A stretch of 62,496 nucleotides of DNA, filler included, from Methanobacteriota archaeon (GTDB taxonomy: Archaea; JACRDV01), in NCBI GenBank assembly GCA_024860865.1. It is 5 parts of 5 records of this genome, joined end to end, with 100 filler letters (N's around TTAATTAATTAA, not from the genome) between each part and the next. Parts side by side here need not be neighbours in the genome. Positions count along the whole stretch, not along the records: positions 30,700 to 47,618 come from JACRDV010000095.1; 4 more parts are not named here. One strand, given 5' to 3'. The notes under the pieces were generated by a model that did no database searches, was not told the DNA's origin, and saw only the letters and a program-made list of their open reading frames with translations. This document shows, in pieces, positions 148 to 60,316 of this stretch (position 1 is its first letter; each line of letters begins with the position of its first letter). A program made the translations under genes and the position numbers.

Positions 148-1420
148 TGAACTACCTACTGGCTAAAGCCAGTGGCATCACAGATGCCTTATGGTTTCCA
201 AGGTCGCACGCTGGTTGGCTAGCCTCTCGCTATCGAGGCGTAGCTGCACAAAGCCTTGGTTATGGGCTGGTTCACAAACAGCCCTGTTCCAAACATATAG
301 TCTAGGAACCTGTTTGCAATATTTATTGCTCCATTTAAATCTGCACTATATTCTAAGCCACAAGAGCACTTGAATAATCTTTTTATTCTAACTCCTTTCG
401 CTCCACATTTATGGCAAGTTATTGAAGTGTGATTCTCTGGTATCAATTCAACTGGAATTCCTTCCCAGTTTGCTTTGTAAGTTATGAATTTTGTTAATTG
501 AGCAAAAGCCCAACTATTTATTTTTCTATTGTTCTTTCTGCACCTAGTTTTCCCCTTTATCCTCGGCTTTCTGATTTTCTTTAATTTTCCTAAAACAATT
601 GCTGGCACGTACCCTTTGTTTTTTAGCTCAACTGCTCTGTTTACGATTTCTCTGCTTATCTTATGGTTTACATCCCTAACAATTCTCTGCTCTTTATTTC
701 CAATTCTTTTGATGATTCTTATTGCCTTCTCTATTTTTGCCTTGCCTAGGCTTTTTCTTAAATTGTTGTAGTGAGCTCTTATGGCTCTAATTTTATTTCC
801 GTAGAACCTTGGGATCATTTTCCCATCCAACAACTCCACAGAAGTTGCTGGATTTCTTTCTCCTAGGTCTATGGCAATTATAGCAAGCTTAGAAAAATTT
901 TGAGGGTGTTTAATTTCAACCTCTTTCTTAACAGCAAAATGCAGGAAATATTTTTCATTTTTTCTGGTTAACTTTGATTCGCAAATCTCGAAGTTTTCGA
1001 AATTGCAATGGGGCTTGATTGCGACCCACACTCCTCCCCTTCTTCCAGCAACTGGAATCCTTGACCAATACTTTGCAATTTTTGTTTCTTGCTTTTCAAT
1101 TTTTATTAAGTCCTTTCTTATAGATATTGGGTATTCTTTTCCTTGCTTTATTTTTTTGTAAAATCTTAAAGACTGCTGCTTGTTTGCAGAGTAAAGCTTT
1201 GCGCCTTTATTCCCTCGAAGGAAGAGCTGGAGGTTTTTGTATTCTTGATCTAAAATTTGCTTCTTAATTTTTGTTAAAGCAACAACCTTTGCTTTTATTG
1301 TTTTCTTAACTTCCATGGTTTTAACTGAAACATAAATTTTATTTAAAAATTTCCGAACAAAAAGCAAGTGGAGGGGGTGACCGAAAGTATTCAATTCATC
1401 TCTCCAGCTAAAGCAAAGAG
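148..1420 (-). mobile_element. Non-autonomous IS200/IS605-family (IS1341-like) element: tnpB only, with hairpin ends
   Basis: Right-end hairpin ctactggctaaagccagtgg (~156-175), followed by ...gtagttca on the minus strand. Related left-end motif caagaatactctttgctttagctggagagatgaattg (~1392-1428, minus). No tnpA inside. Boundaries approximate. Confidence 0.7.
219..1316 (-). CDS. tnpB: RNA-guided endonuclease TnpB (~365 aa)
   Basis: RuvC-I IAIDLGERNPA, zinc ribbon TSITCHKCG...CSCG, RuvC-III ADLNGAINIA. Likely start ATG 1316 (MEVKKTIKAK). Confidence 0.9.
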   Translation of the reverse strand: MEVKKTIKAKVVALTKIKKQILDQEYKNLQLFLRGNKGAKLYSANKQQSLRFYKKIKQGKEYPISIRKDLIKIEKQETKIAKYWSRIPVAGRRGGVWVAIKPHCNFENFEICESKLTRKNEKYFLHFAVKKEVEIKHPQNFSKLAIIAIDLGERNPATSVELLDGKMIPRFYGNKIRAIRAHYNNLRKSLGKAKIEKAIRIIKRIGNKEQRIVRDVNHKISREIVNRAVELKNKGYVPAIVLGKLKKIRKPRIKGKTRCRKNNRKINSWAFAQLTKFITYKANWEGIPVELIPENHTSITCHKCGAKGVRIKRLFKCSCGLEYSADLNGAINIANRFLDYMFGTGLFVNQPITKALCSYASIARG

Positions 1421-9301: not shown

Positions 9302-9401
9302 NNNNNNNNNNNNNNNNNNNNNNNNNNNNNNNNNNNNNNNNNNNNTTAATTAATTAANNNNNNNNNNNNNNNNNNNNNNNNNNNNNNNNNNNNNNNNNNN
9401 N
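9302..9401. other. Artificial contig linker
   Basis: N44-TTAATTAATTAA-N44. Confidence 0.98.
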
Positions 9402-19327: not shown

Positions 19328-22297
19328 TTATTTTATCCCTTCTTTCTGCATTATCCCTTCAGCAGCTAAAATCCCAGTTGCTGCAGCACCAACAATACCT
19401 CTAGAGAGCCCTGCCCCATCTCCAGCCACAAAAAGATTTTCAACAGATGTTTCTAGATTTTTTCCAACTTCAACTCTCATTGCATAGAATTTTATTTCAG
19501 GAGCATAAAGTAAAACAGAGTCAGAAGCAACTCCAGGTATGACTTTATCTAACTTCTCAAGCCCTTCTATAATATTTGTAACCACTCGGTGTGGTAAAGC
19601 CATTGCAATATCCCCAGGCGTAACTGTTTTAAGAGTTGGCTCAATCCCAGATCTTGCTATCCTGTCCCAGTAGGATCTTCTTCCCTTTCTTAAATCACCT
19701 AATCTTTGCAAAATTGGCTTTCCTCCTCCAATTGTTGTTGCAAGCTCAGCAATTGACCTTCCATATGCTGTTGTATCCTCAACTGGCTCAGTTAATTGAA
19801 CTCTTGTTAAAAATGCAAAATTAGTATTAGGCGATTTAATATCTCGCAATGAATGACCATTAACTCCAACAAATCCATCGTACATTTCTCTTACCACATA
19901 ACCTGACCAATTGGTACAATTATGAATTACAACTGGTACATTACCAACTACAAATGTCCGATAAGGCGGAATTGAAAAGTCATAAACTGGACCCTCGTAA
20001 TTAAAGACTTTAATTCCAGTTATTTTTGTATCTAGCAATGGTTCATTCGAAAAAAGATCTTTCATATATCGAGGAGTCTGAACTTGTCTCCAGTACTTTG
20101 GTTTGTGACTTAATAGATTTTTTATTCCTGCACCATCCATGGCTAACATTTCTTTTGCAAAATTAATTTGATGCGCTCTTCCGCCAACATAAATATAATG
20201 TTCAAATCCTCGGCGGAAAATTTTTTGATTTGGAGCTGCACTCAATGTATTCTTTCTATATGTTATAGGATAACCTAGTCGCATGAGTAAATATCCTAAT
20301 TGAGCACGAAGCATTTTAGAAGTTGTCATATAATAAACGCCAGTTCTCCCGACATGCCAATCTCCCTTAAAAAGTGCCTTCAATAGGCTAAATATTATGT
20401 TTTTATCAAAGTTGAAAATATATCTTGGTAATTCTTTATTTTTTGCTCCACTTGGAATTCTGAAGACATATTTTAATAATAAACAATGCAAAAGGGATGG
20501 AAAAGTGACTTGGTTATGATAACGACTAGTTAAATAATGCGCAACATCTTTTCCAATAATCTTCATGCTTTGTATGATTTCTTCTCTAATTGTTTTGCTA
20601 TTATTTGTAAAAGCGATGAAATAATTATGGTGATGTAAATTAAAATTGTAATTTCCATCTGAAACAAAATAACCCAAAATTCTTGCTAGGTCGCGCGTAA
20701 TTGGTAAAATAACAGGCAGCTCAATAATACTACCGGTAAGTCCAAGCCTAAATTTTCTATAATAAGAATCCTTAACGCCATATTTTTCTATTAACTTAAT
20801 TAACTTTAAAAATCTCAGTCTGTTATGGTCATATTTGCAATAGAGTTGCTCATAGGTCGCTGTTAGATCCTTTCGCTTAATCTCATCAATATAATCTTCA
20901 GTGCCTCTAACAATTATCTTAGTTAAAAATTTTCTCGGAACATATTTCTTAAATTCTTCAATCAAATTTAATTCAGCAATGATTTTAGCCGTATCTGGCA
21001 AATTGCGAATTCTTGGCAGGAGTTGACCGGTTTTAACTTCAGTAGCTTTTTTTGGTGTATACTTTAAAATAGGGTCTTTCACCCACTTATAGAAAACGAA
21101 TTTACCTTGCATGCTTTTCCAGACGTATCCGTGCTTTAGTAAATGTTTTAATCGTTCTCTAACTAATGCAACATGAAGTCCAATTTTTTTTGCAATTTCT
21201 TCTGAGCGCACTAGCCCGCTTTTCCTTAAAAGTGTAAGTATCGACATTTCTTCTGGTGTTATATTATCACGAATGAGCAATAAGTGATCAGCAGTTACGC
21301 AAATCTCGCCTCCTTTGAATAACTTCAATCTTACCATTTTACCCTTATAAAAGCGCTTAGTTTTGCATTCTGGTTTTAGCATTTTGATTTTTTTATTATC
21401 TAAATCAACAGAAGCTATGCTCGCTCCACTTGGAACATTTTTAATTCGATCAATATGTAATATGCCATTATCTTCGTAAAAGATCGGTTCATTTGGATGG
21501 AGGCAGAAGGTGCGAACGAAATCATCGTAAGTTTCAGTAAAAATATGAAACTTTGGATCGCGATTGATCTTAATAACCGGTTCAATTACTATATTTGGTA
21601 CTTCTACTCTAACCCCAACATCAATTGGCTCATGAGAAAATTTGATTCCTAATGAACTTGCTTTTTGCTCCAACCAATTTGCTCCGATCCTACCTGTAGC
21701 CGCGATGATGTACTTGCACTTAATCTCTTTTCCATTTATACGAACAAATCCTTTTCCAAAATCTTCAACTTTGGTATCAGCAAGTATCTTCACACCATTT
21801 TTTTCTAAAGTGTTTTGGATAGCTTTCAAAACTTTTGGGGTATAGTCCGAACCAACTAGCCTTTGTGGAATTTGGATGAACTTAACTCCAGCAGCAGCTG
21901 CTTTTCTGGATAACTCGAGCGCTGTATTGCTCGGCTCATAAAGCTCATTAGGAGCTCCATGCTTCAAAAAAACATCATCAACTTTCTTAACCAAATCCCA
22001 GGCTTTTTTCTCATTTTTAGTTAGATCTATTAGGTTACCACCGATATCTGGCCTTAAATTTAAAATACAGGATGAAAGCCCGCCAGCCCCTCCAACTCCA
22101 GACATAATATTGCATGGCTTACAGCGTTTGCATTCGCCAATTGCTACTCCAATTATGCCTGCTGGACAATTGCGTTTATCGACCGGTTTACCTTGCTCTA
22201 AAACCAAGACATTCAGTTTGCTTTTCTCAGAAAGCTCATAAGCAGCAAATAGACCAGCTGGGCCTGCTCCGATTATCACAACGTCGGCTTTTTCCAT
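19328..22297 (-). CDS. NAD(P)/FAD-dependent oxidoreductase (COG2509-like) interrupted by an intein; ~460 aa after splicing
   Basis: GAGPAG Rossmann motif, [44 protein letters not shown]. Confidence 0.92.
19919..21505 (-). mobile_element. Intein (529 aa) with LAGLIDADG homing endonuclease and an inserted wHTH
   Basis: Starts CLHPNEPI (Cys1 = residue 265); block [14 protein letters not shown] and LKALFKGD motifs; block F VYDFSI; ends VIHN followed by +1 Cys. Confidence 0.93.
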
Positions 22298-30599: not shown

Positions 30600-30699
30600 N
30601 NNNNNNNNNNNNNNNNNNNNNNNNNNNNNNNNNNNNNNNNNNNTTAATTAATTAANNNNNNNNNNNNNNNNNNNNNNNNNNNNNNNNNNNNNNNNNNNN
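30600..30699. other. Artificial contig linker
   Basis: N44-TTAATTAATTAA-N44. Confidence 0.98.
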
Positions 30700-42547: not shown

Positions 42548-43096
42548 CTACGGCTTAACTCGCTCGAGCCGATAATAAGTAACATCGCCTTCTTCATCAA
42601 CTATTCCTAAAAATAATTCTTTACGAACTGCTCTTGCCAGTCTGGTCATCCCAGAAAGATCTTGTGTAGTTAAAGAGTCGCCTTCTTTAATAGCATGGAC
42701 TAAGTAATCTGAGTGAGCTTCACCTGGTTTACCCCCTCTATAAACCCTAAAGTGAGTGCCAAATTTAAACCCAGTTTTGACGTAGTACCCTCGACTCTTA
42801 AGCTCCCGATAGACTACAAAACGAGTTCGAATGTCCGGTTCAAGCTGAGATGCCTTCCTTAACAAGTCATCAAAATTTAGTTCTTTACCAGTTTCTTCGT
42901 CTTTTACTTTAATCCTCCCTTTTTCAAACAAAAAAAGGGCTTCAACTAGAGACACCTCCAACTTGCTGCCTGAGAGAGGGGTGCCAAAGTAACCCTTTTG
43001 ATAAAGTTCGTTTCCAGCTACTTCATCCCAAACTATTACCTTGTCCTTTAATAGGGTAGCTTCAACGGGTGGAGGTAGGGGGAGTTGTTGCTCCAT
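42548..43096 (-). CDS. endA: tRNA-splicing endonuclease (single catalytic-type subunit, alpha4-like size)
   Basis: SLVEALFL, KTGFKFGTHFRVY (Y), EAHSDYLV (H), AVRK (K); 182 aa. Confidence 0.93.
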   Translation of the reverse strand: MEQQLPLPPPVEATLLKDKVIVWDEVAGNELYQKGYFGTPLSGSKLEVSLVEALFLFEKGRIKVKDEETGKELNFDDLLRKASQLEPDIRTRFVVYRELKSRGYYVKTGFKFGTHFRVYRGGKPGEAHSDYLVHAIKEGDSLTTQDLSGMTRLARAVRKELFLGIVDEEGDVTYYRLERVKP

Positions 43097-46507: not shown

Positions 46508-46999
46508 CTAAATTCCCTTGACGTAATCCTTCAATAGCTCAGAAACCATCTCTTCCTTCACACGCTTGTTCAAATATTTTTTGTCTATTATTTTCCAGTA
46601 GCCTCTTAGCAACAGAATAGCCTGTTCACAGTCAGATTGCGATTTCCAAAATTTGCATGCGCATAGCCTATCTACGAGGGCATCTTCGACTCCAATTATT
46701 TTAATAGCATATTTCGTTCCGCTCAACTTTATTCGATTCACTTTTTTTCTAGTAGATAAATTACCAACTATATCAATGCAAACATCTTCACGAAAGAATA
46801 CTCTTCCTTGTTTTTCAAATTTCATTTCTTCTAAAATTTTTGATAATACCTCCCTGTCACCTAGGATATCCATATCTAGGCTCTTGTAGGCTCCACCGGT
46901 ATATAGTTCAACAGCAGAACCACCCACTAAAATCGGTTCTTTACCTTTTGGGCAGCGTGCTGTTATTTCGCCGAGGATTTCGAATTTGTTTCCTACCAA
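46508..46999 (-). CDS. Nucleotidyltransferase (DUF6036-like)
   Basis: ILVGGSAVELYTGGAYKSLDMD; EDALVDRL. Confidence 0.7.
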   Translation of the reverse strand: MVGNKFEILGEITARCPKGKEPILVGGSAVELYTGGAYKSLDMDILGDREVLSKILEEMKFEKQGRVFFREDVCIDIVGNLSTRKKVNRIKLSGTKYAIKIIGVEDALVDRLCACKFWKSQSDCEQAILLLRGYWKIIDKKYLNKRVKEEMVSELLKDYVKGI

Positions 47000-47124
47000 A
47001 CCTTAATCTCCTTAATCTTACCTTTAACTATCTTAACGCCTTTTTTTATCCTCATTTCAACTATCCTAGCTATTGCCTCAAACTCATCTTTATCTCTAGG
47101 TCTTGTTCGAATCGTCTCAGTCAT
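46993..47124 (-). CDS. Small partner protein of the nucleotidyltransferase
   Basis: ATG 47124 follows GGAGTG; overlaps the downstream start. Confidence 0.45.
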   Translation of the reverse strand: MTETIRTRPRDKDEFEAIARIVEMRIKKGVKIVKGKIKEIKVW

Positions 47125-47242
47125 GAAATCACTCCTAAAAATGAGTTTTGATAGCTTAGACTTATTTAGACTTTGGTTTTTTGAGTTTCTTAACATAAGT
47201 TTTTAATTTTGGATTTGAAAATAGTAAAAGTGAGGCATAAAA

Positions 47243-47618
47243 TTGAGGACATATCCACGCTGTGTTACTCCTGGATTTACTCCATTTGACCCAGTGGAGC
47301 TAGCGAAAGAAACTGAGAAAATTGTTTGTGTAGGGAATAAACGCAAGTATACTAATTTCTATGCCACTGGCGTATATGTATTGTAAAAGTTTTTACATTG
47401 CAATATAGCGCGAACGGTGGTATAGCTACTGGATACGCGATAGGCTGCATGTTGCGCTGCGTATTTTGTTGGATTGATTTCTCTCGAGAATTTCCGGAGA
47501 AATATGGAAATTTTTACTCGCCAGAAGAAGCATTTAACAAACTAAAAGAAGCTGCTCATAAATATGGAGTTCGCAAACTTCGCATCTCAGGAGCCGAGCC
47601 AACTCTTTGCAAAGAACA
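47243..47618 (+). CDS. Radical SAM protein (COG5014-like), two exons 47243-47375 and 47414->47618; 3' truncated at contig end
   Basis: Spliced translation LRTYPRCVTPGFTPFDPVELAKETEKIVCVGNKRKYTNFYATGVYGGIATGYAIGCMLRCVFCW...KLRISGAEPTL, with CxxxCxxC. TTG start follows GTGAGG. Confidence 0.85.
47376..47413 (+). other. Putative 38-nt bulge-helix-bulge (BHB) mRNA intron
   Basis: Canonical hBHBh': exon helix 47359-69/47415-25; central helix GCGU/GCGC; 3-nt bulges AUA and GAA; intron helix 47377-86/47398-407. Removal restores the frame. Confidence 0.85.
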
Positions 47619-47718
47619 NNNNNNNNNNNNNNNNNNNNNNNNNNNNNNNNNNNNNNNNNNNNTTAATTAATTAANNNNNNNNNNNNNNNNNNNNNNNNNN
47701 NNNNNNNNNNNNNNNNNN
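47619..47718. other. Artificial contig linker
   Basis: N44-TTAATTAATTAA-N44. Confidence 0.98.
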
Positions 47719-48042
47719 AAGTGCGCCTGCTCCGCTTGCTCCAAATCCAAACTTCATTGGAACCTCGAGCAAATGAGCAACCGATATAGAATATTGCAGA
47801 CCTGCCATTTCAAGCATTGTTTTGACAACTGTTTCAGTAACTGGAGCTGGAACCTGCTTTTCATCAATTGTTATGTTGATTGAAGTTGAGCTCGATTTTT
47901 CAGCATTAACTTCGGTTAAAACTCCTTTTGTGATTACAACACCTGCCCCGCGGGACCCAATTTGAGTTGCATCAATCGCCTTTTCATCACAAATTTCAAA
48001 AAAACCAGTTATATGTCCTGGAACAAATGCAACTGCTCTCAT
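47719..48042 (-). CDS. Pantoate kinase (GHMP family), 3' truncated
   Basis: AFVPGHITGFF, GSRGAG, PMKFGFGASGAGAL; directly follows coaBC. Confidence 0.85.
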
Positions 48043-49274
48043 TTTAAGCGCTCAACTACAATATCAAAAATCTTCTTTGCGATTTCGCGTTTGGAGGTTA
48101 GAGGGACATGGACAACCTTCTTATTGGGGCCAATAATAAAAACCTCGTCTGTATCAGAACCGAAGTGACAGCCAGTTCTGCCAACGTCATTTGCTACAAT
48201 TAAATCTACGTTTGTATCTTTCATGCAGTAATAAGCTGAAGCAATTAGATCCTCATCAGTTACTTGAAATTCTGCTTTAAACCCAACTACAAAAATGTTT
48301 GGGAAATCTTCTTTTATTTTTTTAATAATCTTTGGTAAGGGTTTGAGAACAACTGTGTGCTCCCGAGAAGAATCAAGTTTTAAGCTAGAAGGATTTTCTA
48401 CAAAAAAGTCTGCCACTGCAGCTGCTCCAACCACTATGTCGTATTTATTTGGTTTTAGCTCAGCGATTACTGCATCGTTCATCTCTCTAGTTGTTACAAC
48501 ATTGATAACTCTCATATACTCTGGAGGCTTTTGAGCACCTGGCCCATAAACTAAAGTTGCCCTTCCTCCTCGAGCTGCTGCCTCTTCTGCAATTGAAATC
48601 CCCATCTTCCCTGAACTTTTGTTTGTTATAGTTCTAATTGGGTCAACGTGCTCAACCGTTGGTCCAGCCATCACTAAAACTTTTTTCCCACTCAAATCCT
48701 TTTGATGATGCAACTCTTTTATTACAAAATTAACGATTGTTTCCATTGGTGCAAGCTTCGCCGTTCCTTCCTCAACTTTTGGCTCAATGAATTTCACTCC
48801 AATTGACTTTAATTTCTCGATGTTTGCCTTTAAGATCGAATTTTCATAAAGAGAAATATGCATAGCTGGTGCTATTGCAACTGGAATTTTTGAACCGAGC
48901 GCGGTTAAGGCTATACAGGTTACCGGTGTATCATAAATCCCGCAAGCGATTTTAGAAATAGTATTTGCAGTAGCAGGCGCAACTAAAACAAAATCAACTT
49001 TTGATTGCCCCTCTGTAAGTTGGATATACTCAAGTTTTCCGGTCAACTCAGTTACAACAGGATTGCCAGTTCCAAACTCTAACGTGTCTGGATGAATTAT
49101 TTTTTGAGCAGCAGAGCTCATAACTCCAAAAACTTCAGCACCATTCCTAATCAATTCCCTTGAAATTTTCGGAGTCCCAATTGCCGCAACGCTGCCAGTA
49201 ACACAAAGTGCGATCTTTTTGTCCTTTAGGAGCTGGCTTTTGGCGCCCTTAATAATCTTGGTTGGGTGTTCCAA
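48039..49274 (-). CDS. coaBC: Phosphopantothenoylcysteine decarboxylase/synthetase
   Basis: TGSVAA, APATANT, PAMH, AGPT.EHVDPIR, NKSSGKMG, AAVADF, GFKAE. Confidence 0.92.
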   Translation of the reverse strand: MEHPTKIIKGAKSQLLKDKKIALCVTGSVAAIGTPKISRELIRNGAEVFGVMSSAAQKIIHPDTLEFGTGNPVVTELTGKLEYIQLTEGQSKVDFVLVAPATANTISKIACGIYDTPVTCIALTALGSKIPVAIAPAMHISLYENSILKANIEKLKSIGVKFIEPKVEEGTAKLAPMETIVNFVIKELHHQKDLSGKKVLVMAGPTVEHVDPIRTITNKSSGKMGISIAEEAAARGGRATLVYGPGAQKPPEYMRVINVVTTREMNDAVIAELKPNKYDIVVGAAAVADFFVENPSSLKLDSSREHTVVLKPLPKIIKKIKEDFPNIFVVGFKAEFQVTDEDLIASAYYCMKDTNVDLIVANDVGRTGCHFGSDTDEVFIIGPNKKVVHVPLTSKREIAKKIFDIVVERLK

Positions 49275-60216: not shown

Positions 60217-60316
60217 NNNNNNNNNNNNNNNNNNNNNNNNNNNNNNNNNNNNNNNNNNNNTTAATTAATTAANNNNNNNNNNNNNNNNNNNNNNNNNNNN
60301 NNNNNNNNNNNNNNNN
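60217..60316. other. Artificial contig linker
   Basis: N44-TTAATTAATTAA-N44. Confidence 0.98.

Follow-up and report, generated by a model that had tools for sequence, protein, structure and literature searches.

Archaeal introns bounded by a motif of the bulge-helix-bulge (BHB) type are known from tRNA and rRNA and, among protein-coding genes, from cbf5, whose pre-mRNA intron was reportedly described by Watanabe in 2002 and Yoshinari in 2006 in Desulfurococcales and Sulfolobales. The canonical motif with both flanking helices (hBHBh') is a substrate for all archaeal types of the tRNA-intron endonuclease EndA. A BHB is defined by two opposed 3-nt bulges and a 4-bp helix (PMC6379350, available portion), and the cuts fall between the second and third residues of each bulge (Yokobori 2009, PMC2738675, available portion). 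In the literature that we searched, cbf5 was the only confirmed host of an archaeal pre-mRNA intron; subscription papers and supplements lay outside this search, and an earlier report is possible. The accessible part of PMC2738675 gives no confirmed splicing in genes other than cbf5 and mentions, via a SIRV1 paper and a book chapter, unconfirmed predictions for other genes. The accessible part of a 2025 paper in Nucleic Acids Research cites archaeal mRNA introns through three cbf5 papers only, and a search for BHB introns in archaeal radical SAM genes gave a single, irrelevant paper. Here we analyse a 62,496-nt stretch of joined contigs (hereafter the window) from the metagenome-assembled genome (MAG) of a Methanobacteriota archaeon (GCA_024860865.1). 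Positions 47376-47413 on its plus strand are, in our judgement, highly likely to be a 38-nt BHB intron that EndA and the ligase RtcB splice from the pre-mRNA of a conserved radical SAM gene of archaea, which encodes ~270 residues. Judged from DNA sequence, radical SAM is very probably the second gene family known to carry an archaeal BHB mRNA intron.

The predicted intron resembles that of cbf5 in several respects. Both are bounded by a BHB with predicted cuts between bulge residues 2 and 3, both split a codon within a highly conserved motif (the catalytic region in cbf5), both have a patchy distribution that implies gain and loss, and both sit in genes that are mis-annotated by gene callers. 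The length is also similar, the cbf5 introns ranging from 16 to 44 bp (PMC2738675, available portion). In contrast to cbf5, the host is a radical SAM gene, its split codon is not the catalytic Asp codon of cbf5, and the intron is carried by a groundwater archaeon, by Hadarchaeota-like organisms and by a MAG labelled Korarchaeota. The cbf5 motifs are mostly relaxed BHBs, whose cleavage is believed to require the heteromeric EndA of Crenarchaeota (PMC2738675, available portion), whereas the window motif is fully canonical and the EndA encoded in the window most resembles those of M. kandleri and M. jannaschii. Splicing of cbf5 is backed by cDNA and enzyme evidence, while that of the radical SAM intron is predicted from DNA. 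A second host gene with a canonical motif, in lineages beyond Desulfurococcales and Sulfolobales, would free archaeal mRNA splicing from its tie to one gene or to a relaxed crenarchaeal EndA.

With the BHB introns of tRNA and rRNA the element shares the 3-4-3 geometry, the flanking helices and the expected use of EndA and RtcB, and its size is within the 11-175 nt of tRNA introns (PMC2738675, available portion). Unlike them, it has no tRNA or rRNA context: ARAGORN found no tRNA in the window, and the sole Rfam match, to a miRNA hairpin, stayed below threshold (23.5 bits; gathering score 70). Its exon helix is built from codons, with RNA structure and protein constraining common bases. The RNA motif of the eukaryotic HAC1/XBP1 mRNAs is a pair of twin stem-loops. 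Their splicing is likewise independent of the spliceosome and combines an endonuclease acting at structured sites, a tRNA-type ligase (RtcB or tRNA ligase) and a change of frame, but the nuclease is IRE1 rather than EndA, and the role is known to be stress-regulated (PMC13149111, available portion).

The interrupted gene opens with TTG at 47243 in a reading frame (...KRKYTNFYATGVYVL) that ends after ...YATGVYVL at a TAA (47384-47386), giving a 47-residue peptide if left unspliced. From 47416 the protein continues in another frame (GGIATGYAIGCMLRCVFCW...) through to the contig end. The junction region (47359-47425, 67 nt) has the full architecture of a canonical hBHBh'. An 11-bp exon-exon helix, including two G-U pairs, joins 47359-47369 to 47415-47425. 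The 4-bp central helix pairs the exonic GCGU (47370-47373) with the intronic GCGC (47408-47411) and separates the two bulges, AUA (47374-47376) and GAA (47412-47414), which lie on opposite strands. The interior of the intron (47377-47407) contributes a 10-bp helix (47377-47386 with 47398-47407) closed by an 11-nt loop (47387-47397). The predicted cuts, 47375/47376 and 47413/47414, release 47376-47413 together with the in-frame TAA. They leave exon 1 (47243-47375, plus strand), which comprises 44 residues and the T of a split Tyr codon T|AC, and a partial exon 2 (47414-47618, plus strand), which begins with the AC of that codon and holds GGIATG and a CX3CX2C motif. Removing the 38 nt in silico joins GTA T|AC GGT GGT and regains FYATGVYGGIATGY in frame, with a predicted spliced junction of ...GGCGTATACGGTGG.... 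All coordinates and pairings in a preliminary description of this DNA (reading frame ends, helices, bulges and the change of frame) proved correct, as did its statement that the BHB cut rule brings V-Y-G-G back into frame.

The fold is more stable than expected by chance. The 75 nt from 47355 to 47429 have a minimum free energy (MFE) of -28.3 kcal/mol (z = -4.9), and none of 200 shuffled sequences was as stable; the exact BHB structure has -26.4 kcal/mol, or -27.2 kcal/mol with the bulges forced open. When both window strands were scanned for strict BHBs, scored as outer plus inner helix base pairs with the central helix not counted, the motif at 47359-47425 was the sole one reaching 21 bp or more. 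In windows simulated 60 times under a first-order Markov model, motifs of at least 18 bp arose at 0.033 per window and none reached 21 bp.

Exon 2 identifies the host. Its CMLRCVFC has the CX3CX2C form, and its Pfam PF04055 score of 41.2 bits (cut-off 29.5) places the protein in the radical SAM superfamily, so that the gene family does differ from cbf5, as the preliminary description had said. A search with the exon 2 peptide found 380 proteins at E <= 0.001, the best at 81% identity, belonging to an archaeal family of ~270 aa; exon 2 is 75-81% identical to homologues. GVYGGIATGY is contiguous in all 12 intronless homologues examined, which agrees with the contiguous GVYGGIA predicted beforehand; the longer FYATGVYGGIATGY occurs in 10 of these, the other two being substituted upstream of GVY. 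By tblastn, residues 1-45 of intronless homologues match 47243-47377, and seven homologues place residue n (Tyr) at 47375-47377 and residue n+1 (Gly) at 47416-47418, which leaves 38 extra bases. Only three deletions of 38 nt can restore the protein, and the one given by the BHB rule, with the Tyr codon split T|AC, is among them.

On its sequences, this radical SAM family of ~270 aa forms a distinct uncharacterised group, though its NCBI name is MoaA. Full-length homologues score 35-52 bits with three NCBIfam models of MoaA (GTP 3',8-cyclase) against cut-offs of 231-325, no specific NCBIfam model matched the family, and it has no PDB sequence match at E <= 0.001. In three of 11 loci examined, the convergent neighbour is a tungsten-type aldehyde:ferredoxin oxidoreductase (AOR; PF01314 and PF02730) whose stop-codon end overlaps the radical SAM gene by 4 bases (L002:3666-5477, L023:681-2498 and L025:2278-4170). 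This adjacency hints at a role of the family in tungsten-cofactor or AOR maturation. A MoaA-like 'cmo' gene was reportedly described beside aor in Pyrococcus by Kletzin in 1995, and it may be linked to the present family.

Relatives carry inserts in the same codon. A degenerate pattern in which 16-46 additional bases separate ...GTNT from GGNGGNATH... depends on a TAT Tyr codon, corresponds to inserts of 14-44 nt and misses other forms; in metagenomes it returned five loci, three of which are true carriers. These are the metagenome loci L023 and L025, each with a 23-nt insert, and L026, in the MAG labelled Korarchaeota, with 17 nt. A fourth carrier, L028 with a 31-nt insert, lies in a genome of the Hadarchaeota phylum (G427). 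The two other metagenome hits were rejected: L024 is an unrelated chance match to the pattern, and L027:1672-1732 is an assembly artefact, a tandem duplication of ...GGCGGCATCGCAACTGGCTACTGT... around NN. In the window, in a variant of it from another sequencing run (X1, below) and in L023, L025 and L026, the strict scanner detects a single canonical BHB apiece, and all of these splice to ...FYATGVYGGIATGY.... In silico splicing also yields full-length proteins at all four other loci (269 aa for L023 and L025, 273 aa for L026), with both exons intact in each. Of these same-codon inserts of 17, 23, 23 and 31 nt, three are canonical BHBs and one is relaxed.

A second insert, of 40 nt (L028:1625-1664), separates ...WSRD from FPEK... 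in the L028 gene, 77 nt downstream of the first. Its fold is a relaxed BHB whose central helix combines GGG/CCC with an A.G mismatch and whose bulges are AUA (5') and (G)AAU (3') (MFE -33.2; none of 200 shuffles as stable). Without both inserts, the locus encodes a 272-aa protein with 88% identity to the intronless homologue P0021 from Hadesarchaea.

The insert was compared among independent DNA assemblies, using the Logan contigs of four DNA runs over 46900-47618. The contig of run X1, from another study, spans the whole stretch including the insert, continues for ~460 nt past the contig end in the window and differs from the window at 12 substituted positions and one gap. Five substitutions and a 1-nt deletion fall inside the 38-nt insert, against seven substitutions in the other 681 bases. 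The pair of changes 47377 T>C and 47407 A>G turns a U-A pair of the intron helix into C-G and is therefore compensatory, and 47378 G>A turns G-U into A-U. The deletion shortens the X1 insert to 37 nt, which would be harmless if the insert is spliced out. Run X2, from a third study, covers 47209-47477 and holds the insert unchanged.

An alignment of four carrier sequences points the same way. In it, 96.5% of cells are paired, four inner-helix pairs have changed on both sides and all 11 exon-helix pairs are standard; none of 500 shuffles matches the covariation, and partners slid out of register pair at 18-48%. These four two-sided pairs, together with the U-A to C-G exchange in X1, are the compensatory changes that the preliminary description had suggested looking for. 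The exon-helix codons pair at 11 of 11 positions in five carriers and at 10 of 11 in L028. Among intronless loci in register (n = 16), the same codons pair at 6-9 of 11 positions, with a mean of 7.2; here 17 of 19 loci were matched by a regular expression (L004 and L016 were not), and L001 was out of register. The L023 and L025 proteins share 83-85% identity with the intronless P0021; between the two loci, 70 codons of 269 differ synonymously and 33 non-synonymously, none of them among codons 40-55 around the motif. As read from these comparisons, both exons are under purifying selection and synonymous positions within the helix are frozen, which fits a spliced, structure-dependent gene and is unlike a pseudogene. 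The locus would thus offer a natural case in which RNA structure and codon choice are constrained together.

The expected endonuclease is encoded nearby. An intact EndA gene (42548-43096, minus strand; 182 aa; Pfam PF01974 at 105.8 bits and PF02778 at 77.1 bits) lies 4.2 kb from the motif on a common contig (30700-47618). Among solved structures, its best matches are the enzyme of M. kandleri (5x89, 8e-42) and that of M. jannaschii (1a79, 6e-33); the aligned motif positions are occupied by Y, H and K, presumably the catalytic residues. No RtcB was found among the 31 window open reading frames (ORFs) scanned; in the carrier genome G427, one EndA match and an RtcB are present. The best named relative of the window EndA is from Hadarchaeales (51%). 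For the window PheRS-alpha, a Logan contig from its own strain matches at 99% and the next best hit at 54%, with 40-53% identity in five genomes, and an Atlas search for its relatives returned mixed phyla. Of the suggestion that the intron belongs to a different lineage from that of cbf5, the part concerning the carriers stands, as these fall outside the cbf5-bearing Desulfurococcales and Sulfolobales; the lineage of the window itself is unplaced, its best non-self PheRS-alpha match being the one at 54%.

We propose that, in the transcript, the codons for FYATG would pair with those for YGGIA to form the outer helix and the codons for GV with the 3' end of the intron to form the 4-bp central helix, while the intron interior would fold as its own hairpin. 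EndA, encoded 4.2 kb away, would cut each 3-nt bulge after its second base, and an RtcB-type ligase would join the exons to give GTA TAC GGT, bringing back VYGG and the frame. The intron would probably be freed as a small circle. Cleavage, ligation and circle formation are steps that we infer, as are any regulatory role and a dependence of expression on EndA and RtcB. The 67-nt motif and its cognate EndA, both on one contig, make a clean biochemical substrate.

EndA might instead act mainly as a brake on expression, with regulated cleavage or decay of the mRNA, or only a small spliced fraction, in place of a constitutive intron. The motif is a perfect EndA substrate and ligation is the step that we infer; yeast EndA, moreover, cleaves an mRNA (CBP1) outside tRNA splicing (PMC6379350, available portion). 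Exact ligation at the BHB sites is, however, the only route to the conserved protein, and the joint selection on exons 1 and 2 implies that a ligated product is made. RtcB is also present in G427, and we consider this explanation improbable.

The case for a spliced intron also has to be weighed against an inert lesion, in which a hairpin-forming insertion has made a pseudogene and stays in the RNA. Several observations count against splicing. The window gene is incomplete, being cut by the contig end at 47618 with an N-linker from 47619, and tblastn of the seven homologues found no further piece of it in the window. None of the runs listed for the locus is RNA, and the L028 gene bears two interruptions. 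The MFE fold swallows the 5' bulge, leaving the exact BHB near-optimal at 1.1-1.9 kcal/mol above it. Some changes in the helices are uncompensated: in X1, 47381 T>C leaves C.A in the intron helix, and in X2, 47360 T>C turns an exon-helix U-A into C.A and Tyr into His. The L023 motif holds a U.U mismatch, the L028 BHB is relaxed, with one G.A mismatch in its outer helix and a weak inner helix, and the covariation count comes from four sequences of which two are near-identical. The intron is also rare, with few or no pattern matches across sampled genomes. Within the phylum of the Hadesarchaea loci, the degenerate pattern matches a single genome of 66 (G427, L028), and it matches none of 401 sampled genomes in the phylum of Methanomethylicia; a genome-contig scan with the exon 2 peptide gave 22 loci, of which all 19 archaeal ones are intronless.

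Against an inert lesion, at least five independent sequences carry different inserts in the identical codon, and the BHB cuts restore the frame in each. The exons are intact in L023, L025, L026 and L028, synonymous codon differences between L023 and L025 outnumber non-synonymous ones by 70 to 33, and synonymous positions in the exon helix are fixed so as to pair at 11 of 11. A lesion that stays in the RNA is very unlikely on these grounds, and we retain the EndA-spliced intron as the preferred explanation.

Translational hopping or programmed frameshifting that carried the ribosome past the insert would make RNA splicing superfluous, and a stable hairpin with a stop near the take-off point does resemble phage T4 gene 60. 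The inserts of 17, 23, 31, 37 and 38 nt nevertheless fall into two classes modulo 3, so no single frameshift fits them; matched take-off and landing codons are not seen in the sequence, and the conserved feature is the 3-4-3 geometry of the BHB rather than a hopping signal, which makes bypass hard to credit. An assembly or sequencing artefact has a negligible chance of explaining the 38 bases: the window does consist of short MAG contigs joined by linkers, and the pattern hit L027 elsewhere is a duplication artefact with NN, but the insert is present in Logan contigs of two other studies, from strains that differ elsewhere from the window, and homologous inserts occur in unrelated assemblies.

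The distribution of the predicted intron over the family was followed on a quick IQ-TREE tree of 117 of the 120 listed hits (three of less than 225 aa were left out) together with the spliced carriers. The intron label needs five changes on this tree, and well-supported branches force at least four; the window row fills 40% of the tree columns and its placement is weak. As far as the sequences indicate, the distribution appears to be one of patchy gain or loss at a single site. On a contig of Hadesarchaea archaeon DG-33 (L001, ~300-330), the gene is intronless, 99.6% identical to P0021 and without the junction Tyr codon (GTA-GGT in place of GTA TAC GGT). An intron lost imprecisely could have left the 3-nt gap as a scar, or the gap could be a plain small deletion.

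The at least four gains or losses on the quick tree, the two L028 introns 77 nt apart and the possible loss scar of L001 raise a broader, tentative reading, which we hold to be possible and no better than that: EndA-spliced mRNA introns may be a wider and still active class in deep-branching archaea rather than a crenarchaeal cbf5 curiosity. Mobile introns that target self-complementary exons would fit the pattern, as the codons of YATG and GGIA pair at 6-9 of 11 positions without an intron; so would an old intron that was lost repeatedly. If the broader reading holds, an enzyme found beside tungsten AOR genes would depend on the tRNA-splicing machinery. A conserved protein motif broken by a BHB would serve as a simple screen for more cases.

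The intron causes a systematic annotation error, in which carriers appear as truncated or mis-started 'MoaA'. Three of the 120 listed homologues (P0013, P0027 and P0096) have nonsense N-termini right before GGIATG, which equal exon 1 or the intron read in the exon 2 frame, and P0248 is a longer gene call of the same mis-started kind. P0096 and P0243, both named MoaA, correspond to NCBI entries RLG51497.1 and RLG51298.1 of a MAG whose label is Korarchaeota or Thermoproteota; the exon 2 frame of L026 (L026:7473-7529) yields the N-terminus of P0096. Both entries begin inside the exon 1/intron region, and gene callers do miss the intron, as had been foreseen. In the public annotation of the Korarchaeota-labelled MAG the gene is present as a mis-started exon 2 only ('MATWRAH-GGIATG...'), and the JGI and ENA calls begin later, at MSWSRD.

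The second strongest BHB-like motif of the window, at 48870-48975 (plus strand; outer helix 10 bp, inner helix 8 bp, 79 nt between cut sites), lies antisense within an intact CoaBC gene (48039-49274, minus strand). We do not regard it as a real BHB, since motifs of such strength arose at the simulated rate of 0.033 per window, and it probably reflects chance or repeated Ala/Ile/Thr codons.

The window holds five separate contigs, joined by linkers of the form N44-TTAATTAATTAA-N44 at 9302-9401, 30600-30699, 47619-47718 and 60217-60316, and adjacency across them is meaningless; the predicted intron lies near the end of the third contig. CODH/ACS and a NiFe hydrogenase are also encoded in the window. 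This MAG has a second kind of intervening sequence at 19328-22297 (minus strand), an intein with a LAGLIDADG domain (PF14890, PF14528) that splits a FAD-dependent oxidoreductase of 989 aa. At 219-1394 (minus strand) lies a TnpB/Cas12f-like ORF of 391 aa (PF07282).

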